Shown: piece by piece, positions 10,241 to 20,334 of the stretch
Numbering within the stretch: the first letter of the stretch is position 1
How the letters are laid out: each line of letters begins with the position of its first letter
Origin: an uncultured virus (IMG/VR IMGVR_UViG_3300031758_000013)
Lineage: Duplodnaviria > Heunggongvirae > Uroviricota > Caudoviricetes
Direction: 5' to 3' (one strand)
IMG/VR virus record: IMGVR_UViG_3300031758_000013
Length of the DNA: 64,000 nucleotides
The notes under the pieces: model-generated
Databases searched by the model: none
The model's input: only the letters and a program-made list of their open reading frames with translations
Told to the model about the DNA's origin: nothing
Position numbers and translations under genes: made by a program

Positions 10241-10732
10241 TTAGAAACGAACGCCGAAGCCTACAAGAGCTCCGTGCTGACCAACTCCACGATCAAAGTC
10301 GGTATAGCGATACTCGACCTTGCCATAGACAGGACCAGCAATGTTGGCTTCAACACCAGCTCCAAGACGCAGGCCTTCGAGTTCAGTCGAAGTGGTCTGC
10401 TTCCAGTTGGCATATCCAACCTTACCATAAACAAGAACAGCGTCCTTGATTACATAGCCAAGGCGAGCAGATGCACCAACATTACGACGATCGAATACAT
10501 TGTCAAGATTTGCTTCAAATCCAACAATAACATTCTTGTAAAGTTCAGCATCGAAACCAACAGCAGCTCCATAAGTAACATCAGTTAGGTCAAGCCGGCG
10601 AGCTGCGACTGGACCAGTAACATCGTCTACTCCAGCAGTCACTTCAGCACGAACACCCGTAAAAGAATTTGCCATGGCTGGAGTTGCAAGAGCGGTGCTT
10701 GCAGTTGCAATTGCAATCATAAAGTTCTTCAT
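10241..10732 (-). CDS. Small outer-membrane beta-barrel protein (OmpA/Omp25-like 8-strand family)
   Basis: Signal peptide ending PAMA, amphipathic strands, KVEYRYTDF, C-terminal GFGVRF BAM signal. Confidence 0.85.
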   Translation of the reverse strand: MKNFMIAIATASTALATPAMANSFTGVRAEVTAGVDDVTGPVAARRLDLTDVTYGAAVGFDAELYKNVIVGFEANLDNVFDRRNVGASARLGYVIKDAVLVYGKVGYANWKQTTSTELEGLRLGAGVEANIAGPVYGKVEYRYTDFDRGVGQHGALVGFGVRF

Positions 10733-10831
10733 ATATATTCACCTTTTGTTGTTAATCAGCGATTGATAGGCTCAATCACCAAAGCCTTCATACAACTGGT
10801 TGATACTCTCTTCCAGTATTCCTTAAACTTG

Positions 10832-10999
10832 TTAATTCTTTGGATAGCGATAGTGGTAAACATCATCAATGTTTTCCCATTCAATATCGCTCAAATCAAG
10901 TGCACTAATATCTTTAAACACTTTATAGCCAAAATAAGATAAAATTCCTATGATGACTACTCCTGCAGCACCGGAAAATATCTTTGTATTTTTAAGCAT
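10832..10999 (-). CDS. Small single-TM protein
   Basis: Start re-called at MLKNTKIF after a GGAGA RBS; hydrophobic segment. Confidence 0.55.
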   Translation of the reverse strand: MLKNTKIFSGAAGVVIIGILSYFGYKVFKDISALDLSDIEWENIDDVYHYRYPKN

Positions 11000-11011
11000 T
11001 AATATCTCCAT

Positions 11012-11306
11012 GAATAAAGCGAAGTGGAAGGATTTGGTTGTACCTTCAAGACCCAGCCAATTACCTATGTAATCTCGGTCTACAACTCGTTTGCTGGTTG
11101 AGCAGGAGGACCACTCCCCGAGTTTTGCCTTACTCCCACTGGCGAGGGAGTTATTCAGCCACACTTCTTACGTAGCCCGTCGGCCACGATATCTAAATGA
11201 GTGTAATGGCTACTGAGGTGTCGACTCGCTAGGTCGGTAATTTCGCTCTTTACGTTCCCATCTTCCCCCATATCGCTTGGTCACCACGGGAACTTCCACT
11301 ACATTC
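11012..11306 (-). ncRNA. Candidate ~295-nt structured RNA immediately 3' of tRNA-Asn
   Basis: Terminal stem AGTGGAAG/CTTCCACT and many internal helices; GC-richer than flanks. Confidence 0.6.
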
Positions 11307-11310
11307 AAAC

Positions 11311-11385
11311 TGGCTCCTCAAGATGGATTCGAACCACCGACCAGCGCATTAACAGTGCGCGGCTCTACCGCTGAGCTATTGAGGA
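11311..11385 (-). tRNA. tRNA-Asn(GUU)
   Basis: Cloverleaf, anticodon loop CTGTTAA, encoded CCA. Confidence 0.95.
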
Positions 11386-11419
11386 ATATGATCTTTATAT
11401 TCTTAGTCTACATTATATA

Positions 11420-11617
11420 TCAATTAATGTCAACCGTTTTTAATTCAGCACGAATTTCTTTATAGTGGCGAGTAAGAATTTCGCGAACTTGTTGCTTCTC
11501 AGTAGGAGTTGCAAACTGAACTTCAAAATATAGATTACCATTCATTGAAGATTCACCAGCAGCATTATCTGCATCTTCAAGAAAATCGCTTATGTGTATT
11601 TGTGTTTTGATAGTCAT
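11420..11617 (-). CDS. Hypothetical protein
   Basis: AGGAG RBS, ORF between tRNAs. Confidence 0.6.
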   Translation of the reverse strand: MTIKTQIHISDFLEDADNAAGESSMNGNLYFEVQFATPTEKQQVREILTRHYKEIRAELKTVDIN

Positions 11618-11632
11618 AACAAACTCCTATAT

Positions 11633-11709
11633 TGGTGCCCTTGGCAGGATTCGAGCCTGCAACCATTCGCTTCGAAGGCGAGCGCTCTATCCAGTTGAGC
11701 TACAAAGGC
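11633..11709 (-). tRNA. tRNA-Arg(UCG)
   Basis: Cloverleaf, loop CTTCGAA, CCA; atypical T-loop CTCGAAT. Confidence 0.85.
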
Positions 11710-11714
11710 GTATA

Positions 11715-11751
11715 TGGTGCGGAATGAGAGGGTCGAACTCCCGGCATCCTT
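11715..11751 (-). pseudogene. 3' half of a split tRNA (probably Val)
   Basis: AAGG-ATGCC-GGGAG-TTCGACC-CTCTC-ATTCCGC-ACCA; pairs with the 5' half at 12358-12386. Confidence 0.85.
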
Positions 11752-11757
11752 TGAATA

Positions 11758-11833
11758 TGGTAGGTCCTGACGGGCTCGAACCGCCGACATCATCCGTGTA
11801 AAGGACGCACTCTACCAACTGAGTTAAGGACCC
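11758..11833 (-). tRNA. tRNA-Val(UAC)
   Basis: Cloverleaf, loop TTTACAC, CCA. Confidence 0.95.
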
Positions 11834-12317
11834 GTGACCGATATAATCGGTTGTATTTATTACGTTTTGTATTCTTTTTATTGCGACCACACCATGTATG
11901 TGTTTGAGTATGGCAGTTTGGACATAAAATTTGCAAGTTATCTAATGAATTATTATCACTATTTCCATCTATATGATCCATTTGTAAGGTGAGAGGTTTA
12001 TTGTTCCACTCAGAACCTACACCGCATGCTTCACAATATTCTCCGCGTGTTTCAAACAAATACCGTTTCATGTGCTGTTCAGCAAGAACTTCTCCATTTT
12101 GTATTTGTTTGAAACGTTCTTTCCATTCATATTCACGTTGACATTTATTACTGCAATATTTGGCATTAAACGTCAAGCTTTGGCAATTTGGGCACAGTGT
12201 AGCTTCTTTAGTTTTACGTGAAACAGAATATCTTCCACCTTCGCGATGGACACTTTTATGTCCATTTAGTTTACGATGGTTATCAAATTCTTTGTCGCAC
12301 ACTTCGCACTTGTACAT
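11790..12317 (-). CDS. HNH homing-endonuclease-like protein with N-terminal C2H2 zinc finger
   Basis: YKCEVCDKEF...HKSVH; CxxC ribbons; DHIDGNSDNNSLDNLQILCPNCH; AGGAG RBS and TATAAATA upstream. Confidence 0.9.
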   Translation of the reverse strand: MYKCEVCDKEFDNHRKLNGHKSVHREGGRYSVSRKTKEATLCPNCQSLTFNAKYCSNKCQREYEWKERFKQIQNGEVLAEQHMKRYLFETRGEYCEACGVGSEWNNKPLTLQMDHIDGNSDNNSLDNLQILCPNCHTQTHTWCGRNKKNTKRNKYNRLYRSRVLNSVGRVRPLHG

Positions 12318-12357
12318 ATAAACTCCTTAGCTCAATTACTAAGTTATTTATAATTTT

Positions 12358-12386
12358 AAGGCGCTCTACCACTGAGCTAATCCCGC
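12358..12386 (-). pseudogene. 5' half of a split tRNA (probably Val)
   Basis: GCGGGAT-TA-GCTC-AGTGGTA-GAGC-G-CCTT then abrupt AT-rich sequence. Confidence 0.85.
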
Positions 12387-12391
12387 GAAAC

Positions 12392-12468
12392 TGGTACCCG
12401 TGGAGGGACTCGAACCCCCAACATCCTGGACCTAAACCAGGCGCCTCTTCCAATTGGACTACACGGGC
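12392..12468 (-). tRNA. tRNA-Leu(UAG), short variable loop
   Basis: Cloverleaf, loop TTTAGGT, CCA. Confidence 0.85.
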
Positions 12469-12545
12469 AAGTGACTCCCCACAGTGTGCTTCACTACTTG
12501 GTTGGCCGAACCTTTCACATCGAGAGGCAGGGGGAGTTCTATTAA

Positions 12546-12704
12546 TTACTTAGTTACAGCAACTCTAAGAGTGCCAAGGCCAAGAGCACCAAGAAGTGCA
12601 TATACGTATTCTGGAATAACATAACCTAAAGCTTGAGCAACAGCTAAAGCAATAGTAACTGCAGATACGATATAGGTCTTTTTACCTTCTAAAAATGCCA
12701 TCAT
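12546..12704 (-). CDS. 52-aa two-TM protein, holin-like (MMAFLEGKKTYIVSAVTIALAVAQALGYVIPEYVYALLGALGLGTLRVAVTK)
   Basis: Read by eye; AGGAG RBS and TATAAATA at 12749-12756; not in ORF track. Confidence 0.65.
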   Translation of the reverse strand: MMAFLEGKKTYIVSAVTIALAVAQALGYVIPEYVYALLGALGLGTLRVAVTK

Positions 12705-12762
12705 AGAGTTTTCTCCTTATATTAATAAAGTCTTGCAAGACTCGACTATATTTATATAAGGT

Positions 12763-12838
12763 TGGTGGAGAATAACGGGATCGAACCGTTGACCTTCTGC
12801 ATGCAAAGCAGACGCTCTCCCAGCTGAGCTAATCCCCC
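12763..12838 (-). tRNA. tRNA-Ala(UGC)
   Basis: Cloverleaf with G3:U70, loop TTTGCAT, CCA. Confidence 0.95.
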
Positions 12839-12840
12839 AT

Positions 12841-13110
12841 TTAAATACTTGGTTTATCAACGTTTGCGTTCATAGCTTCCATTGTTTCTAACCGAAGTGT
12901 TTCAATTTCAGATGCAGACGGAACGTAATTCTTTTTATAATTATATTCCATCAATTCATCTTGAGACATAGTCGACTTGAGATCAGAAACTATGAATGCA
13001 AACCGTAATACTTCATTGCTATTTGGATTATACATTGATACAGACTTAAGTCTGGCTTCAGCAATACGAAGATTATCAAATTTACTCATTGCAGATGAGA
13101 CTACATTCAT
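12841..13110 (-). CDS. Hypothetical protein (start re-called at MNVVSS)
   Basis: AGGAG RBS; the longer ORF-track start runs through tRNAs. Confidence 0.55.
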   Translation of the reverse strand: MNVVSSAMSKFDNLRIAEARLKSVSMYNPNSNEVLRFAFIVSDLKSTMSQDELMEYNYKKNYVPSASEIETLRLETMEAMNANVDKPSI

Positions 13111-13134
13111 AATATACTCCTTTGTTGATAAATT

Positions 13135-13208
13135 TGGAGCGGGATACGGGAATCGAACCCGTCTAATCAGCTTGGAAGGCTGGAGCATTACCACTATGCT
13201 AATCCCGC
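13135..13208 (-). tRNA. tRNA-Gly(UCC)
   Basis: Cloverleaf, loop CTTCCAA, U73-CCA. Confidence 0.93.
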
Positions 13209-13215
13209 AGTATTC

Positions 13216-13291
13216 TGGTGCCCCCACGACGACTCGAACGCCGGACCTACGCATTACAAGTGCGTCGCTCTACCAACTGAGCTATAAGGGC
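13216..13291 (-). tRNA. tRNA-Thr(UGU)
   Basis: Cloverleaf, loop CTTGTAA, CCA. Confidence 0.95.
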
Positions 13292-13335
13292 TTACGATAT
13301 GTTCTATCGCTATTTGTGTTCTTTGCTTTATTAAA

Positions 13336-13412
<77 letters not shown>

Positions 13413-13432
13413 TTATTATCTATATATAAAGC

Positions 13433-13506
13433 TGGATGCCCCTCTAGGACTCGAACCTAGGTTGACGGATTCAAAGTCCGCTCTCTTACCACTAGAGGAA
13501 GGGGCA
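13433..13506 (-). tRNA. tRNA-Gln(UUG)
   Basis: Cloverleaf, loop CTTTGAA, U1:A72, CCA. Confidence 0.93.
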
Positions 13507-13513
13507 ATAAACT

Positions 13514-13598
13514 TGGTGGACCCCGTGGGGCTCGAACCCACGACCTTTTACAGATCGGTTTTACAGACCGATTGCCGAAACTATCGACTTTAAGACCC
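13514..13598 (-). tRNA. Atypical tRNA-Tyr(GUA)-like cloverleaf whose 3' 33 nt also match the split tRNA-Lys 5' half
   Basis: ATCGGT-CTGTAAA-ACCGAT anticodon arm and long variable arm; acceptor GGGTCTT/GGGGTCC has four G:U pairs; no U8 or D-loop GG. Confidence 0.55.
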
Positions 13599-13614
13599 CT
13601 TATTCTATACACCC

Positions 13615-13719
13615 TATCGGTTAACTCCATTCTAGATCGCGGTAAGGAATCCGATATTCGCCAGCGTTCCCCGTCTGTTAGTCTGGCTAGGTCTCTCCGG
13701 CAGTTTCTAGAATACCGGA
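13615..13719 (-). ncRNA. Candidate ~105-nt three-hairpin RNA with kissing loops
   Basis: TCCGG/CCGGA, GCCAG/CTGGC and TATCGG/CCGATA stems; loop sequences ATTCTAGA and TCTAGAAT are complementary. Confidence 0.5.
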
Positions 13720-13725
13720 TAATTC

Positions 13726-13801
13726 TGGTGATCCAGGTGGGGTTTGAACCCACGACCTCGGGTTTAAAAGACCTGTGCTCTACCTACTGAGCTACTGGAT
13801 C
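13726..13801 (-). tRNA. tRNA-Lys(UUU)
   Basis: Cloverleaf, loop CTTTTAA, CCA; one A-C mismatch in the anticodon stem. Confidence 0.9.
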
Positions 13802-14353
13802 GGTTATTTCTTTTAGAATATAATCTATAAATGTTTTTTTGTCAACTAGTTTTTGATAATCTGACCATTTGATACGAACAATTTTCCAACCTAAATTTTC
13901 TAGATATTCGTTTCGTCTTTTATCACTAGTAACAACTCTTCCATCTAAATAATGTTGGTCGCCATCAATTTCTAAATCAATATTACCTATAGCAAAATCC
14001 AATTGATAAGGACCAACTTGAAATTGTTCTACATATGAAACATCGTGTGAATCTAGAATTCCTTTCCAATATTCTTCTGGATAAGATCTTCCTTTAGAAT
14101 AGTGATTTAACTTATATGGTACCATATCAGGATTTTCTCTAAGAAATTTTATTCTGCTTTCGCTAATTTTTTTCTTAGTCTCTTCAGACAGTGGTCCACG
14201 TTTTTTGTTAGCATCACTCCACTTTTTTCGTGTTTCTTCTTTTATCTCCGGCTTAGATAGTCCTTCAACTTTTGCTTTAGTATATTGATTTGTACCATTG
14301 CCGCGTCTAGCAGCCATAGCAGCATACCATTTTTCGCTCTTAGGTTTACTCAT
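13784..14353 (-). CDS. NUMOD3-like + DUF559/Vsr-like (EDxHD-type) endonuclease
   Basis: SEETKKKISES repeat; EQFQVGPYQLDFA..LEIDGDQHY..DKRRNEYLENLGWKIVRIKW. Confidence 0.85.
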   Translation of the reverse strand: MSKPKSEKWYAAMAARRGNGTNQYTKAKVEGLSKPEIKEETRKKWSDANKKRGPLSEETKKKISESRIKFLRENPDMVPYKLNHYSKGRSYPEEYWKGILDSHDVSYVEQFQVGPYQLDFAIGNIDLEIDGDQHYLDGRVVTSDKRRNEYLENLGWKIVRIKWSDYQKLVDKKTFIDYILKEITDPVAQ

Positions 14354-14395
14354 ACCAGTCTCCTTACTAGTATTTATAAATTTAGAGCATTCAAC

Positions 14396-14431
14396 TAAAG
14401 CCCGTTGCTCTACCTACTGAGCTAGGGGTCC
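14396..14431 (-). pseudogene. 5' half of a split tRNA-Lys
   Basis: GGACCCC-TA-GCTC-AGTAGGTA-GAGC-A-ACGGG-CTTTA, broken in the anticodon loop. Confidence 0.85.
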
Positions 14432-14443
14432 ATTTAGTTGAAT

Positions 14444-14527
14444 TGGTGCGGGCGGCGGGACTCGAACCCGCACGGATCTCTCCACAAGATTTTAAGTCTC
14501 GCGCGGCTACCATTACACCACGCCCGC
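14444..14527 (-). tRNA. tRNA-Leu(UAA)
   Basis: Loop CTTAAAA, long variable arm, CCA. Confidence 0.92.
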
Positions 14528-14691
14528 GTGATTTAACCTAAGCGGTTTCTTCCTGCTTCAGGCGAGCGTATTCTTTCATAGCCCACTGAAAATCACCCGG
14601 TCGCAGAGCGCCCGAGTTTGCGGCCTGAGTGAACAGGCGGTCCAGCATTTCGCTCATCTTTTCCATAACAATCTCCATTCCGTATATTCTT

Positions 14692-14720
14692 AGTATAGTA
14701 TATTTTCAATATAATGTCAA
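14692..14720 (-). promoter_or_regulatory. Early promoter TTGACA-17-TATACT (family also at 9244, 10144, 11405, 19055, 19472, 20070, 28634, 38551)
   Basis: Near-consensus sigma70 promoters with shared flanking sequence. Confidence 0.75.
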
Positions 14721-14733
14721 CTAAAAAAACATA

Positions 14734-15009
14734 CTAGAACAGTAATGCGATAATAATTGCTACCAGCACTGGGCCTACAAGGCCGAGTCGCCGCGGAAAG
14801 GTATCCCACACTCTCAAATCAAATCCACCCCACCATGGCATCGATGCTCGAAGCTTATCGAGTGTATATCTTTCAATCCAACGATATTCTGCTTGAGCAT
14901 GCTCGCGACCTAGGTATAATGAGACTACTGCTAGTCCACCAATCCACCAATTACCAGTTGCAACACCTACTGCTATTTGGATTATTGCTGTTACTAAAAT
15001 ATGAATCAT
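14734..15009 (-). CDS. Membrane protein
   Basis: Hydrophobic segments; YLGREHAQAEYRWI motif. Confidence 0.65.
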   Translation of the reverse strand: MIHILVTAIIQIAVGVATGNWWIGGLAVVSLYLGREHAQAEYRWIERYTLDKLRASMPWWGGFDLRVWDTFPRRLGLVGPVLVAIIIALLF

Positions 15010-15036
15010 TGTGTTATTCCTTCACTGATCATGTGA

Positions 15037-15390
15037 TTAAGATCTTGATTGATTGCTTGTGTGCCATTGACCATATGAACAGTGAAGAAATTCATGACCC
15101 ACAAATTCTGGTTCATATTTAACAGTTGGTTTCACCATATGGATGGTGCATACATCAAAGGGAGCTCGTAATTCGCTAAACGCTACTATTTCTGTATCAT
15201 TAACGCCTTTAGCTTTAGCAGATGCAAGTAATTCTTTTTGTGTATTGTAAGTTACAACATTAACAAGAACCTGTTGTTTTTCATACTGTGGTGTACCAAA
15301 TTGATAACCATCAGCTCCAGTATTAGGAACTGGTTTGCATGAAGCAACAATAAAAGCAAATAACGTTACTGTAAAAAATTTGTTAAACAT
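15037..15390 (-). CDS. Putative lipoprotein with HExxH motif
   Basis: Lipobox VASC; GHEFLHC; late promoter at 15409-15416. Confidence 0.65.
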   Translation of the reverse strand: MFNKFFTVTLFAFIVASCKPVPNTGADGYQFGTPQYEKQQVLVNVVTYNTQKELLASAKAKGVNDTEIVAFSELRAPFDVCTIHMVKPTVKYEPEFVGHEFLHCSYGQWHTSNQSRS

Positions 15391-15446
15391 AAAGCAGTCC
15401 TCCTATATTATTTATAGGATTATACTGACTACCAATTCATGTTTAT

Positions 15447-15505
15447 AGTCCAAGATTTTATAAAAAAGTCTTATGTTTCCTGCTTTATTTATAAAATCTT
15501 GGACT
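15447..15505. repeat. 18-bp perfect inverted repeat overlapping a late promoter
   Basis: AGTCCAAGATTTTATAAA (15447-15464) / TTTATAAAATCTTGGACT (15488-15505). Confidence 0.8.
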
Positions 15506-15510
15506 CTATG

Positions 15511-15597
15511 AGGAAGCGGTGGGATTCGAACCCACGGTACCCGCAAAGGTACGACAGTTTTCAAGACTGTATCAATCGACCGCTCTGACACGCTTCC
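15511..15597 (-). tRNA. tRNA-Ser(UGA), CCA not encoded
   Basis: Loop CTTGAAA, long variable arm, canonical T-arm. Confidence 0.88.
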
Positions 15598-15654
15598 AAA
15601 GTTGAGGAGCTAACCGTGGCCCCTCGCGTGCTTATTAGGTAGCAACCCCATAAC

Positions 15655-15731
15655 TGGTGCGTCTGGCAGGTCCTGACCCTGCGACCTCAGAGTTATCAGC
15701 ACATGTGCTCTGCCAACTGAGCTACAAACGC
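15655..15731 (-). tRNA. Degenerate tRNA-Ile(GAU) (possible pseudo-tRNA)
   Basis: Acceptor, D-arm and CCA intact; anticodon stem mispaired; T-loop GTCAGGA. Confidence 0.6.
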
Positions 15732-15791
15732 ACATAAAGAGTTTCTAACGATGTCAAAGAGCAAGTTGGCGAGGGTGCCAGAATAGAAAAG

Positions 15792-15865
15792 TGGCGAAGG
15801 TGCAAGGATTCGAACCCTGACTAACGGAGTTGGAAGCCGTCGTGCTACCGTTACACTACACCAAC
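15792..15865 (-). tRNA. tRNA-Trp(CCA), with acceptor mismatches
   Basis: Loop TTCCAAC, G73-CCA; two T-T mismatches in the acceptor stem. Confidence 0.65.
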
Positions 15866-15884
15866 GAACTTTTATTTATACAGT

Positions 15885-16328
15885 TTAATGTAAATGACGA
15901 ACTGCGTGATCAGCAGCATGAGTAGCAGCGAATGAAGAAGGCTTAATCTTGGCATCAAGACCAAGAGAACCCTTCACCCAACCGAGCGCTTCCTTCACGG
16001 CAATACTCGACTTGTGCTTTGGATTCGGGTTGATGTCTAGATGGATCTCTATATGCCTGTTGCCGACTATTTCAATGATCTCAGTGGCCACTGAGACTGC
16101 CATCTGAACTTCCATAAGTAACCTTTGCTTAAGATTACCATAATCTGGCATATCAATAGACTCATGAAACAGCTTGCATCCGTGCTTCGAATCCATATGA
16201 ACAATTACAACCGTGCTATACTTAGCATACCACTGCTCATTTTTATGAAAGCGAATAGAATCGCATCCAATATAAATTGAAGACTGTTCACTAGATTCTA
16301 GAATTGCAGCCTTAGCTTGTTCAATCAT
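15885..16328 (-). CDS. RNase H-like YkuK/DUF458 family protein
   Basis: IYIGCDS, RLLMEV, IHLDINP, AATHAADH. Confidence 0.8.
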   Translation of the reverse strand: MIEQAKAAILESSEQSSIYIGCDSIRFHKNEQWYAKYSTVVIVHMDSKHGCKLFHESIDMPDYGNLKQRLLMEVQMAVSVATEIIEIVGNRHIEIHLDINPNPKHKSSIAVKEALGWVKGSLGLDAKIKPSSFAATHAADHAVRHLH

Positions 16329-16333
16329 TACTG

Positions 16334-17089
16334 TTACTCGCGTGAAAACAATCGATAGAAAAATGGATCAAATTGTTCAGGTGATGTTTTAACATATTGT
16401 TCTAAAGATCGACCATACAGATCAATACCTTCATCGATACATTTTTGTATGTGATTAGTATCTGTAAATTGTGGGGTATTCATTTCTCGATGAGAAGACG
16501 CCTGAATCTTCTCGCGAATCTTTTCTACGCTACCCCAGTGCGATAAATGCCATCCGGCTTCTGTAATGGGTGGATATGTGTTGCGCATATCTCTATACTC
16601 TTGCGGCTTCTTCTGCCGCATCTCGCGTGCTCGAGTAACAACATTGCCATACCATTGATTCAACGCTATTTGATTTAGATTATAGTAGTGTAAATCTTGA
16701 ACTAGAGTGACTGCTACAGATCGATCTAATTGATCGATAGCTTTATCAATACCACTAAAACTGGGGATTTCATCTATATCACCCATGATTACATAGTCAT
16801 TAGGATCTAGAAGTGACATTGCTCGCTGTAAATTGTTACGTTGAAAATGTTCTACACCCCAGTATTTTTGTGCTAACACGGGAGAAGCTACACACGGTAA
16901 ATAGATAATTCGATCCATGTAATATGCATATCGATCGATATTATCGATAAAATTGTATCTCTTTGGTTGACCACTAAAAGTCATATTACATTCAGAAATA
17001 ACAAAGTAATTTACTTTTTTAAACAGAAATTCTAGTCTAGATTCTAGAAGATCATATTCATTAAAAAATGTAAAACAGTCTACAATCAT
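16334..17089 (-). CDS. Glycosyltransferase family 17-like protein
   Basis: DCFTFFNEYDLL, TFSG.PK, EHFQRN, GDIDEIP, GWHLS. Confidence 0.85.
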   Translation of the reverse strand: MIVDCFTFFNEYDLLESRLEFLFKKVNYFVISECNMTFSGQPKRYNFIDNIDRYAYYMDRIIYLPCVASPVLAQKYWGVEHFQRNNLQRAMSLLDPNDYVIMGDIDEIPSFSGIDKAIDQLDRSVAVTLVQDLHYYNLNQIALNQWYGNVVTRAREMRQKKPQEYRDMRNTYPPITEAGWHLSHWGSVEKIREKIQASSHREMNTPQFTDTNHIQKCIDEGIDLYGRSLEQYVKTSPEQFDPFFYRLFSRE

Positions 17090-17261
17090 ACTATGCTTAC
17101 TTTTTTAAACTTACCACACCAACTATTAGATTTTATACGAGGATAACAATTATTTAAATCTTTAATATAAACAGGAGGATCATATCTGCAGATGCCTATA
17201 TTAATATCATTATCATAAGCATCTTTATGCAAAAAGGCATAAAAGAAACAGTCCTCACAAG

Positions 17262-17795
17262 TCATACGGATCTCTCTAAAACTGTAAAGCCATGGCAATG
17301 AATATTGTGAGATCTTACTCTCCAATGTTTATTACAGGCAAGAAATTCCATAATGGCTGGTAGAAGTTCTCCACCAAAAGGTTTATCAGTATCATGAAAA
17401 GCGAGGAACCGGCGAGCTTTATGCCCGTGTAATCTGAGCTCCTGCGATAACTGTTGATATGTATGATCAGTATCGATAAACAAAAGATCGGTTGGCTCGA
17501 TGTCAATTGCTAAGGTATCACCTTTAATATATCGATGATCTCTTCCAAGACTTCTTGATTTTTCGAAAAGAGCTTCTACTTGTGGATCGAGCTGTAGATC
17601 ATAAGCTCGTACGATACAAGCTTCTGTTAACAGTGCTCGAGTAGAAACACCAGTTCTTGTTCCCATTTCTGTCACGTGATCACACACAGAAGCAAGAGCT
17701 CTGAGCATGGGTAAATGTATATTAATATCAGATGGAGTTTCAACAGCCCATCTATAGTGAGCTTCTAACTCTTGTTCAGTAACATTCATTTTCAT
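17262..17795 (-). CDS. Class I SAM-dependent methyltransferase (Methyltransf_24-like)
   Basis: TEMGTRTGVS, DLLFIDTDHTY, AFHDT. Confidence 0.8.
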   Translation of the reverse strand: MKMNVTEQELEAHYRWAVETPSDINIHLPMLRALASVCDHVTEMGTRTGVSTRALLTEACIVRAYDLQLDPQVEALFEKSRSLGRDHRYIKGDTLAIDIEPTDLLFIDTDHTYQQLSQELRLHGHKARRFLAFHDTDKPFGGELLPAIMEFLACNKHWRVRSHNIHCHGFTVLERSV

Positions 17796-17824
17796 ACCTT
17801 ATTAAGGTGAGTGCGTGACAAAAT

Positions 17825-17899
17825 TGGTAGACGAGGAAGGACTCGAACCTTCACCCAAGCCGTTATGAGCGACCGGCTCCACCTTTGAGCTACTCGTCC
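17825..17899 (-). tRNA. tRNA-CAU (Ile2 or elongator Met)
   Basis: Loop CTCATAA, CCA; no initiator features. Confidence 0.85.
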
Positions 17900-18095
17900 G
17901 TTAGCTGTATTTACATGAGAAGTTTTGGAAGCTCAATTGCAACACTGTGCGCCATCCATCCAACAACAAACCAGGTAAAAGCCGCTGGCTTTGTTGAATT
18001 GTGTTTCTTTACGTCACTAATTCCAAAATAAGCATTTAAAACTAAAAAAAATATAAGACCAAATAGCCAAACCATATTGTCTCCATAAGTTAAAT

Positions 18096-18172
18096 TGGCG
18101 CGCCCGGCAGGACTCGAACCTGCTACCTCAAGATTAGAAGTCTCGCGCTCTATCCAGATGAGCTACGGGCGC
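18096..18172 (-). tRNA. tRNA-Arg(UCU)
   Basis: Cloverleaf, loop CTTCTAA, CCA. Confidence 0.95.
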
Positions 18173-18180
18173 ATTCTGCA

Positions 18181-20334
18181 TTATGCAATACGATTAATAC
18201 GATGTAGAAGATTAGCTACCTTGGACAATTCATCTGATGTATTAGCTGTTAACGGAGTACGTCGTAACACCTCCGTATATGCATACAAAGCGCGCTTTAA
18301 AGTTTTCATATCAGCAGTGGCAAATGCGCCGCCTTTTGCTTCTTTAATCATGTTACACACTTCCTCGATTCAATTAGCCAAGTATTTGCACTGTCCATCC
18401 AATCGAGAGCTTCCACAGGAATTAATTCTCCACGACGCTGAGCATTCAGAATTTCGCAGTAAGTAAATTCTACATCCTTAGGATTTTCCATAGTAGGAAA
18501 CGAGTATACTTCAACTTCCATAGCAACCTCCATATATATTATATATCACTTACTCGTAAAACTCTTGATCAACATTAGCAAAATTATAAAAACAGTTACA
18601 GCTGCAATTGGAATCCACAGTGGTGAAAGCACCCACCACCAAGACCATGCGATATATCCAGTGAGCTTCAGTGTAATAAAGATCAAAGTAAGAACTGGGA
18701 TCCATGGAAATGATATTGCAATACTTGATTTAGACATGAGTTCTCCGGCGATAAACAGAAAAGTGCGTAGCATCAGCCATCAAACAATCCCGATTGGCTT
18801 GACTCCGAGTGCGGCGATAAGTACGGCCAGCTTCGATACAAGGCATATCACGTCCGACTGAAGCTGCACGCGAACCACGGAAACGAATTTTAATAGGAAT
18901 TCCTTCTTCACGATAGGCCGCCAGAACACGTTGGCGAAGTGCAATGGGAACCCAATAGGCAACAGCGTATTGGCCACGAGGAGCGGGGAAGAGCGTTTGA
19001 AGAGCCTGGATTTCAGCATTCGACATAATGTTTCCTTTCATTTCGTATATTCTCAGTATAGTGCATTTTGAAAAAAATGTCAACTAAAAATCACGCAGCA
19101 AAAAGAAACTTTGCATGTTCTTCTGAAGTCTTATAGAGCTTACCACCCTTTTCGTAGATGAACGGCATCTTGTACTTCTTAGAATCGTAACGAACCAGCT
19201 TACAACCGTTCTTTTCCATGACAAGACCGAGAGACTTCACACGAGATTCGAGAATGGCATCGCTGAAAGTCTTAGCACCCTTCACCTTAGCCGAAACCTT
19301 GATCTGAACTTCAGAATCAGAGAACTTCATCGAACCAACTTCGAACTGAAGATTCGAATCAACACCGTACTTAGCGAGAACATGTTCCATTTCAGCACGG
19401 AGAGCGACAAGGTTCTTACGATCAAACTTTTCAAACTTAGTCATGATATATTTCCTTCAGTTGATATATTCATTATATACAAGATAGAATTAATGTCAAC
19501 AATTATTTTTCAACGCTAGCAATTTTTTTGCTCTTTGAACTACCCATGGATCAAATGAAATACGTATTCATTGTACGTTTTCCTTCATAAGAGTTTTGAT
19601 AGATCCATACTTCAGATTGAAGTGCCATTCGAGACGCTCATATCCATACCACTGATACGAATCAAGCTCGCCTTCAGCATCAGCGATGATTTCAACTGCG
19701 CGTTCTGCATCACAGTTGCAGAGCTCCATGGTTTCACGAACACGTGATGCGAACTTTTCAAGGTTCGCAGCCTGACGAATTTCTTCTTCAGCCTGTTGCT
19801 CATTGAGCTGGCTGATAAGAAGCTTGAAGTCTGCATCAAACTCTTCAACCGACTTAAAGGCGGCGGTGCGCGGACGGATGCCATACACGTCCTTGTACAG
19901 GTCCGAATAGACGTCGCCATCGTAGCTGTTGGTGGCTGCATTGATATCAGTAAGACTGAGCATTTTCGGTTCCTCGATTTCGGCCATACGGGCCTGAACA
20001 GCAGAAACGTTGATGAAAGGGTCGATGTAATCAATCTTGGTCATGTCAGTTTCCATTCCTTATATTTTTAGTATAGTATATTTTGAAAAAAATGTCAATA
20101 CGAAATATGCTGCTGAATGCCTTCAATACGAGGCGAAATCTTTTTGGCAGAGAACTGCATGCCATTGATCTCGAAGAAATGTCGGCCGGTGATTGGTCCA
20201 GTCTTTTCCCAGCGAAGCTTTAGAGCTTCACCTTCACGATAAGGACTAATGCCAGCGGTCCAAGACCGGCCGGTCTTGAGTTCAAAAGCTCCACCGCAAA
20301 GATTAATAATCATGTTGTTTCCTTCATTCCTCAT
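18181..20334 (-). other. Cluster of small early hypothetical genes (incl. 18348-18533, 19091-19444, 19568-20044, 20095-20334)
   Basis: Short minus-strand ORFs, several with their own TTGACA/TATACT promoter. Confidence 0.6.

Follow-up and report, generated by a model that had tools for sequence, protein, structure and literature searches.

What kind of element takes the place of the anticodon loop in a transfer RNA (tRNA) gene of the uncultured virus IMGVR_UViG_3300031758_000013? Homing endonucleases are usually harmless by hiding in self-splicing introns or inteins, or by sitting between genes. In the tRNA cluster of this 64,000-nucleotide (nt) stretch, which is called the window, an HNH endonuclease gene lies directly upstream of an intact tRNA-Val gene, yet both are nested inside a second, broken tRNA-Val gene. 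We consider this insert to be probably a non-splicing, mobile break-and-replace homing element of a T4-like phage, which breaks its target and brings a spare. The features of the locus, all on the minus strand, are as follows.

12392..12468, minus: tRNA-Leu(UAG), the upstream neighbour (ARAGORN; Rfam, 52.6 bits)
12358..12386, minus: outer tRNA-Val 5′ half, 29 nt, with acceptor strand GCGGGAT, the complete D arm, G26 and CCTT (homology to intact tRNA-Val genes)
12318..12357, minus: cassette leader, 40 nt, containing TATAAATA and the Shine-Dalgarno sequence AAGGAG
12352-12345, minus: TATAAATA, putative T4-type late-promoter motif
12328-12323, minus: Shine-Dalgarno sequence AAGGAG
11790..12317, minus: zinc-finger HNH endonuclease gene, 175 amino acids (aa), coordinates including the stop codon (Pfam, PHROG)
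11758..11833, minus: inner complete tRNA-Val(UAC) (ARAGORN; Rfam, 59.7 bits)
11752..11757, minus: 6-nt spacer TATTCA, which separates the inner tRNA from the outer 3′ half and forms the right end of the insert
11715..11751, minus: outer tRNA-Val 3′ half, 37 nt, with AAGG, variable loop ATGCC, the complete T arm, ATTCCGC, A73 and CCA (homology to intact tRNA-Val genes)
11633..11709, minus: tRNA-Arg(UCG), the downstream neighbour (ARAGORN; Rfam, 65.1 bits)

The outer 5′ half is separated by 5 nt from tRNA-Leu(UAG) and the outer 3′ half by 5 nt from tRNA-Arg(UCG), and the 606-nt insert between the halves occupies the place of the anticodon loop. The acceptor stem formed by the two halves paired at 7/7 positions (six Watson-Crick pairs and G5·U68) and the D and T arms were intact; the anticodon stem was down to a 4-bp CCTT/AAGG remnant and the anticodon loop was gone. 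The coordinates and sequences of the halves had been reported by an earlier annotation made from the letters of the window (the first-pass annotation) and were confirmed. The stop codon of the HNH open reading frame (ORF) is located inside the inner tRNA-Val gene, 44 nt past the start of the tRNA, and a mere 41 nt of the insert belong to neither ORF nor tRNA. ARAGORN called 15 tRNAs in the window, with the inner gene as the sole tRNA-Val. This gene forms a complete cloverleaf with anticodon UAC and A73-CCA, its Rfam score being well above the gathering score of 29, and is presumed to be a working spare.

A 28-mer from the 3′ half, covering the T arm and acceptor, was found on 36 metagenome contigs, 35 of which hold an uninterrupted 75–76-nt tRNA-Val(TAC) with a TTTACAC anticodon loop. 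The 36th contig, which is one and the same as the nearest virus record, carries the split allele. As the 5′ parts of the intact genes played no role in the 28-mer search, they provided an independent comparison with the 5′ half in the window. Among 34 evaluable contigs, the 5′ half matched at 25/25 positions in one, 24/25 in 14, 23/25 in 16 and 20/25 in three; these last three reflect a one-base insertion in the D arm, and one further contig was cut by the contig end. The intact tRNA-Val of contig L041 matched the 5′ half at 25/25 positions. Such agreement goes well beyond what chance would give. Additionally, all 10 IMG/VR tRNAs with the same acceptor stem and A73 had a Val anticodon loop, and nine of them were named by ARAGORN. 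Both results bear out the first-pass suggestion that the outer tRNA was probably Val with A73, and confirm, on the basis of homology, that 12386-12358 and 11751-11715 are two halves of one tRNA-Val(UAC) gene.

The intact genes read GAGC-G-CCTCG-TTTACAC-CGAGG-ATGTC, and variants of this, across the anticodon arm. Relative to them the outer gene of the window was short of 7–11 nt, the whole anticodon loop included, where the range hinges on whether T30 and A40 are assigned to the old stem or to the insert. No joining of the flanks yields a seven-base loop with U33. The outer gene is not a complete tRNA but a two-piece pseudogene, which was called by neither ARAGORN nor Rfam. Cofolding of the two halves gave −24.1 kcal/mol, and 42 of 500 shuffles folded as well; this was uninformative, and the argument for a broken gene therefore rests on homology to intact genes. 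Inspection by eye of the two ends of the cassette revealed no consistent pairing other than the 4-bp anticodon-stem remnant.

Relatives of the locus were found by searching with the neighbouring tRNA-Leu and the HNH protein, and they comprised empty, occupied and decayed alleles. The empty arrangement was found in L019, where tRNA-Leu(UAG), an intact tRNA-Val and tRNA-Arg(ACG) stand in direct succession; intact genes of this second tRNA-Val type were present on 102 IMG/VR contigs. In L017/L026 and L027 the cassette, with an HNH protein that is 89% identical, occupies tRNA-Val genes of the second type. The outer acceptor stems of these occupied alleles are GCCCGAT/ATCGGGT (L017 = L026; L028 on the 3′ side) and GCCCGGT/ACCGGGT (L027), and both variants were also found intact, in 10 and 7 of the 102 contigs respectively. 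In L026 and L027 the entire anticodon arm is gone and the 8-nt sequence TTATAAAT is duplicated at the left junction.

Alignment of L026 with L027 from base 1 of the outer tRNA to the CCA revealed 664 identical positions out of 668. The four differences are a compensatory acceptor pair (6:67) and two synonymous sites. The flanks of the two units were identical at 29/100 positions on each side and the adjoining tRNA-Leu genes were of different types. The alignment shows that this unit was recently transferred, and the block that moved was the split tRNA with its cargo, because the 664/668 identity sits between unrelated flanks. The outermost acceptor bases look like each recipient's own. The inner tRNA-Val of the window was identical to that of L026 at 73/76 positions, and the spacer varied by lineage, being TATTCA in the window, TATTTCC in L026/L027 and TATTATACC in L176.

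Two further forms have decayed. L029/L030 (HNH 67% identical) are chimeric, as the 5′ part of the inner tRNA is fused in the T arm to the outer 3′ end; their acceptor strands are mismatched and ARAGORN called no tRNA-Val there. In L176 the nuclease is lost: of the outer 5′ half 6 nt remain and of the ORF the final ~16 nt, together with the inner tRNA, the spacer and the outer 3′ part, and the remnant outer allele is GCCGGAT/ATCCGGT. In L031 the nuclease (53% identical, tblastn) is free-standing in the classical layout between genes, here tRNA-Ala and tRNA-Val, with no outer halves, and the inner tRNA type occurs by itself as an ordinary tRNA-Val in the 248-kb contig L177. The cassette is therefore present in at least three other tRNA-Val alleles besides that of the window and its spread is sporadic, with one of the 36 window-type contigs split.

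The 35 intact window-type genes, together with L019 and the 102 contigs of the second type, supply the relatives with an uninterrupted outer tRNA that the first-pass annotation had expected. Its more specific prediction, of an intact gene between tRNA-Leu(UAG) and tRNA-Arg(UCG), held in part: the intact window-type tRNA-Val exists, but in other gene orders. No empty window-type allele was found in the Leu(UAG)–Arg(UCG) slot, and a 33-mer of tRNA-Arg(UCG) occurred only in two cassette-bearing contigs. This tRNA-Arg beside the cassette (11633-11709 in the window; 2104-2180 in L027) reads UCG at the anticodon in the window, against ACG in the homologous genes of L019, L026 and L027, a one-base switch in an otherwise similar gene.

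Analysis of the HNH protein gave a Pfam match to HNH (PF01844) at residues 95-140, with 27.4 bits against a cut-off of 21.4 (E 3.7e-6), and a weak match to a C2H2-type zinc finger at the N terminus. PHROG HNH families matched down to 3e-27. Residues D114, H115, N127 and H136 and the cysteine ligands C95, C98, C132 and C135 were invariant across four relatives. The HNH core (about residues 52-144, 37–54% identity) was also matched by tblastn in several ~110–120-kb enterobacterial phage genomes and in many T4-like phages, while solved structures gave remote HNH-core matches only, to a group II intron maturase (E 6e-4) and McrA (0.017). On sequence criteria the protein belongs to the HNH (His-Me finger) homing endonucleases. 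A comparison with L026 over codons 1-160 gave proportions of non-synonymous (pN) and synonymous (pS) differences of 0.059 and 0.66 and a dN/dS of about 0.04, which indicates that the nuclease is under strong purifying selection and has been kept working. As a separate gene, the ORF has a promoter motif and a ribosome site of its own, with no intron or intein around it. In all four lineages, the free-standing L031 included, it ends within the downstream Val-type tRNA sequence. An unannotated HNH-like frame was also observed in Gordonia phage Forza (L170; MK814760.1) at 591-1139; it takes up the interval from tRNA-Pro to tRNA-Tyr, overlapping the annotated tRNA-Pro, and is 33.6% identical to the HNH protein across residues 15-138.

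The window encodes a UvsX-type recombinase, a gp43-type polymerase, a DnaB-like (gp41-like) helicase, clamp-loader subunits and a gp46-like nuclease subunit, as well as RegA and T4-type major head, portal, sheath and terminase proteins. This gene set identifies the virus as a T4-like myovirus. Megablast against isolated phages gave no match, and blastn gave tRNA-level and HNH-core similarity only.

These observations suggest how the cassette may spread. In a mixed infection, the HNH enzyme would cut the intact tRNA-Val gene of the other phage in or near the anticodon arm, and the phage recombination machinery, to which the UvsX-type recombinase would contribute, would repair the break with the genome that carries the cassette as template. 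With the tRNA halves as homology arms, this repair would copy the nuclease and the spare tRNA into the victim. The carrier itself would be immune, as its outer gene has no loop and the spare differs in sequence. Compared to the outer tRNA, the spare has A10:T25 instead of G10:C25 in the D stem, one extra T in the D loop, and different acceptor and anticodon stems. The D-arm motif is also found in the tRNA-Asn of the window, so the D arm alone cannot be the target. The predicted recognition site is instead in two parts, the D arm and the anticodon arm, such that the split allele and the spare would both escape cutting. Combined D-arm and Val-loop sites numbered zero in three nuclease-bearing records and one remnant record and one in the nuclease-free G006, in line with a two-part site but a weak result as all five are fragments (7–47% complete).

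The first-pass annotation had described a non-splicing element that destroys its target tRNA-Val, and this agrees with the deleted anticodon loop, with the inner gene being the only tRNA-Val called and with the mobility of the unit in L026/L027. The outer gene is evidently dead and the inner tRNA would do its job. The description of the latter as a cleavage-resistant isoacceptor needs amending: a complete, divergent tRNA-Val(UAC) is indeed present, but its anticodon is that of the broken gene, which makes it a divergent copy with the same anticodon.

Several points weigh against a break-and-replace homing element. The relatives are all metagenomic fragments, and the target site was deduced solely from the position of the cassette. 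At about 25 and 32 nt the homology arms are very short, and that T4-type repair works with them is an assumption. In the Leu-Val-Arg slot, the relatives nearest in synteny (L019, L026 and L176) hold the second tRNA-Val type. The junctions also differ: the 5′ junction lies after position 29/30 in the window and L029 and after position 26 in L026, and on the 3′ side the outer tRNA resumes at position 38-41 in the window, near position 45 in L026 and within the T arm in L029, so that there were either several insertion events or later rearrangements. Of transcription there is one metatranscriptome contig (243 nt, depth 2.8, 12072-12315) that touches the HNH gene, for which DNA carry-over is possible.

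A target site deduced from position, and the unequal junctions, would also suit an account in which the cassette does not home and carries the HNH gene as a passenger: an HNH–tRNA-Val block entered a tRNA-Val gene through a single illegitimate recombination, ordinary recombination and descent spread it, and the nuclease cuts elsewhere. The strongly mosaic tRNA clusters, with varied gene orders around the same tRNA-Val, would fit as well. This account is nevertheless unlikely, as it leaves unexplained why the near-identical L026/L027 unit stops exactly at the borders of the split tRNA and why one cassette should occupy at least three matched outer alleles of which intact versions exist as well. 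The strong purifying selection on the nuclease, the sporadic distribution (one split among the 36 window-type contigs, with the 102 second-type contigs intact) and the position of the distant relative L031, again directly upstream of tRNA-Val, also argue against a passenger. An artefact of assembly, conceivable for a metagenome-derived window in which tRNA genes are repeat-like, has a negligible probability. The identical 672-nt arrangement was present in two IMG/VR contigs, one of which matches the window at 100% over 1601 nt. The 5′ junction was covered by run contigs X9 (12281-12496) and X11 (12219-12468) and the 3′ junction by X13 (11725-12078), with 0–1 differences; these came from three independently assembled runs of three studies with freshwater or lake labels. 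Four further lineages have the same layout in diverged sequence.

Removal of the insert from RNA, either as a self-splicing intron or through protein-mediated cutting around the embedded tRNA followed by ligation, would restore the outer tRNA. The insert lies where bacterial tRNA group I introns lie, namely those of cyanobacterial tRNA-Leu and tRNA-fMet; the halves keep perfect acceptor, D and T arms, and the embedded tRNA would attract RNase P. Against this, an Rfam search at E ≤ 1 over 10500-19000 found no intron family, nor other structured RNA in the insert, and ORF and tRNA together take up all but 41 nt of it. ARAGORN in intron mode did not call the outer tRNA, as expected with the anticodon loop absent, and with that loop deleted no excision could restore the tRNA, whichever junction is chosen. 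The relatives point the same way, as L026/L027 have no anticodon arm, the halves of L029 come from different alleles and L176 is without most of the 5′ half. None of the RNA contigs of the sequencing runs joins the outer halves, which is weak evidence as contigs only were searched. Candidate joints that skip 617–618 nt, as spliced RNA would, were rejected; they were found in DNA runs and contain 20–22 letters of a Val anticodon arm, and so represent the intact alleles of other phages. By both marks of a group I intron, a ribozyme core and a gene restored on joining, the insert is not an intron, in agreement with the first-pass annotation, which saw no group I core and called the element non-splicing; removal from RNA is very improbable. 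Somewhat less remote, but still improbable, is that the outer halves remain under selection, either as signals that guide processing of the nuclease mRNA or as a tRNA-like RNA in two pieces that does without an anticodon arm. The halves in the window are undecayed relative to intact alleles and L026 and L027 differ by a compensatory acceptor pair. Both acceptor variants exist intact, though, and separate invasions explain the pair; moreover, the 5′ half and 3′ end of L029 mismatch, L176 holds just 6 nt of the 5′ half, and the cofold of the halves in the window was unremarkable.

If the cassette is a break-and-replace homing element, its leader may indicate how the nuclease is regulated. The motif TATAAATA had 15 matches in the window, all on the minus (gene) strand, compared to 5.8 expected, and none of 100 shuffles reached 15; it fits the late promoters of T4. 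A hairpin was predicted at 12352-12317, in which TATAAAT pairs with GTTTATA (running into the start codon) and CTTAGT pairs with GCTAAG of the Shine-Dalgarno region (−16.3 kcal/mol, z −2.38; 4 of 200 shuffles as good). The last 38 nt of the leader were identical at 37/38 positions between the window and L026, and likewise between the window and L029. Third positions of the ORF were far less alike (104/160 for L026 and 76/160 for L029), which indicates that the leader is conserved beyond expectation while synonymous sites are near saturation.

A late promoter combined with a hairpin that hides the ribosome site, where late transcripts are without the 5′ arm of the hairpin, is described for I-TevI, I-TevII, I-TevIII, segB and Aeh1 mobE in PMC2988022. 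The SegB authors, in PMC2330249, proposed that tRNA processing of the transcript limits expression of the enzyme. By analogy with this T4 pattern, expression of the HNH gene may be under temporal control. Transcripts reading through the tRNA cluster would hide the ribosome site in the hairpin, those from the late promoter would be without its 5′ arm and could be translated, and RNase P, by trimming the inner tRNA, would cut the HNH stop codon off the transcript and thereby keep the enzyme in check.

A second nested cassette was found in the same tRNA cluster, and its features are as follows.

13513..14431, minus: second nested cassette, splitting tRNA-Lys(UUU) (intact homologues, Pfam, acceptor pairing)
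14431-14397, minus: outer tRNA-Lys(UUU) 5′ half, ending inside the anticodon, directly after tRNA-Leu(UAA)
14378-14371, minus: TATAAATA of the tRNA-Lys cassette, followed by a ribosome site
14353-13784, minus: ORF of a 189-aa DUF559-like endonuclease, with its stop inside the inner tRNA-Lys
13801-13726, minus: inner complete tRNA-Lys(UUU)
13545-13513, minus: outer tRNA-Lys 3′ half, with AGGTC, T arm and GGGGTCC-A-CCA

About 180 nt of extra DNA separate the inner tRNA-Lys from the outer 3′ half. The 5′ half matched the intact tRNA-Lys(UUU) of L019 and that of L021 at 32/35 positions each (counted by hand), and in L021 the intact gene occupies the matching slot right after tRNA-Leu(UAA). The outer acceptor strands GGACCCC/GGGGTCC paired 7/7 and covary with GGACACT/AGTGTCC of L021. 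Pfam analysis of the 189-aa ORF gave matches to DUF559 (29.2 bits against 20.6) and RAP (31.5 against 24.2), with MTES_1575 (36.4) just below its cut-off. The second cassette has, to judge from these matches, the same design built with a second, unrelated nuclease fold. A truncated tRNA-like piece at 13517-13598 (minus strand) has a CTGTAAA loop (GTA, Tyr-like) and shares its 3′ end with the outer tRNA-Lys half; its Rfam score of 24.9 bits is below threshold. At the matching place in L019, upstream of its tRNA-Gln, there is an unusual tRNA-Tyr-like sequence with a long variable arm that was not called by ARAGORN.

Further features were observed in and around the tRNA cluster. Rfam confirmed the tRNAs called by ARAGORN and identified one more, at 15658-15731 (minus strand; 44.2 bits, above the gathering score). 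It also identified a manA RNA motif (RF01745) at 11017-11188 (minus strand; 66 bits, gathering score 55.2), which follows closely downstream of the cluster and overlaps the ORF entry 10832-11164. An outer-membrane beta-barrel protein with a signal-peptide-like start is encoded at 10241-10732 (minus strand; Pfam OMP_b-brl, 54.4 bits). Two small ORFs between tRNA genes, of 52 aa (12546-12704, minus strand) and 65 aa (11420-11617, minus strand), had no family match. The former sits behind TATAAATA at 12756-12749, and homologues of the latter come after tRNA-Arg in L017, L019 and L021. Directly after tRNA-Leu(UAG) in L021 (2028-2070, plus strand) is an orphan tRNA 3′ fragment, comprising T arm, acceptor strand and CCA, with no 5′ partner nearby, which may be the remnant of another broken tRNA gene.

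The cassette may be one of a class of natural, selfish home-and-rescue elements that is widespread in the tRNA clusters of phages and has apparently gone undescribed. Each would consist of a nuclease gene fused to a recoded spare of whichever tRNA gene is broken, with the dead halves serving as homing arms. Such a class would draw on at least two unrelated folds (HNH in tRNA-Val and DUF559-like in tRNA-Lys) and would be among the chief causes of turnover in tRNA alleles, of tRNA fragments and of mosaic gene order; we regard the evidence for this generalisation as evenly balanced. The window contributes tRNA-Val, for which the allelic series is full, and tRNA-Lys, where the nuclease is a different one. 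A break-and-replace element amounts to a third route of entry into a highly conserved target, namely to destroy the target and bring a replacement. It would explain why phage genomes contain tRNA fragments as well as tRNA genes that are duplicated or odd, and it offers a concrete mechanism for rapid shuffling of tRNA alleles among phages. Annotation pipelines would show such cassettes as an unexplained HNH gene beside a tRNA. The nuclease is also compact and has a predictable target, whose sequence is at hand in the intact, the split and the spare form.

The novelty lies in how the parts are packaged: the nuclease is fused to a spare of the gene that it targets, and the pair is nested within that gene. 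Full-text literature yielded no description of a nuclease-plus-tRNA cassette nested in a tRNA gene, with subscription journals largely outside its coverage. The bacterial tRNA group I introns likewise insert in the anticodon loop and spread through an encoded nuclease, some of them carrying homing endonuclease genes. They splice out and restore the tRNA, whereas the cassette has no ribozyme and the loop is deleted.

T4 SegB is alike in being a selfish nuclease gene within a T4-type tRNA cluster; according to PMC2330249, it cuts tRNA genes of phages without SegB and takes adjacent tRNA genes with it. It also shares with the cassette a predicted late promoter and a hairpin over the ribosome site (PMC2988022). 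SegB differs in being a GIY-YIG and not an HNH enzyme and in lying between tRNA genes, of which it breaks none; according to PMC2330249, it recognises a conserved T-loop motif of many tRNAs and has no dedicated spare of its target fused to it. MobE of Aeh1, an HNH enzyme, is encoded by a free-standing gene that splits the conserved gene nrdA without an intron or intein, and there the protein fragments reassemble and stay functional (PMC2988022). In the cassette, by contrast, the split product is an RNA without its anticodon loop and function comes from a second, complete gene carried along. The HNH enzymes of the T5 tRNA region, mentioned in PMC2330249, are likewise HNH-family nucleases encoded among phage tRNA genes; the match to them is confined to the HNH core, and in the annotation consulted no nesting in a tRNA gene is given.

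Fractured genes with split inteins also have a nuclease gene lodged between two gene pieces; according to PMC2677866, protein trans-splicing restores their function, whereas the cassette uses a carried replacement gene. The nearest parallel in logic is with engineered cleave-and-rescue and home-and-rescue drives, in which, according to PMC7183144 and PMC7968924, the nuclease inactivates a gene that is needed and comes linked to a recoded copy that it presumably cannot cut. Those drives are synthetic, CRISPR-based and built in insects, whereas the cassette is natural and phage-borne, with an RNA gene as its target and an HNH enzyme as its nuclease; it would be a natural counterpart of engineered home-and-rescue gene drives.

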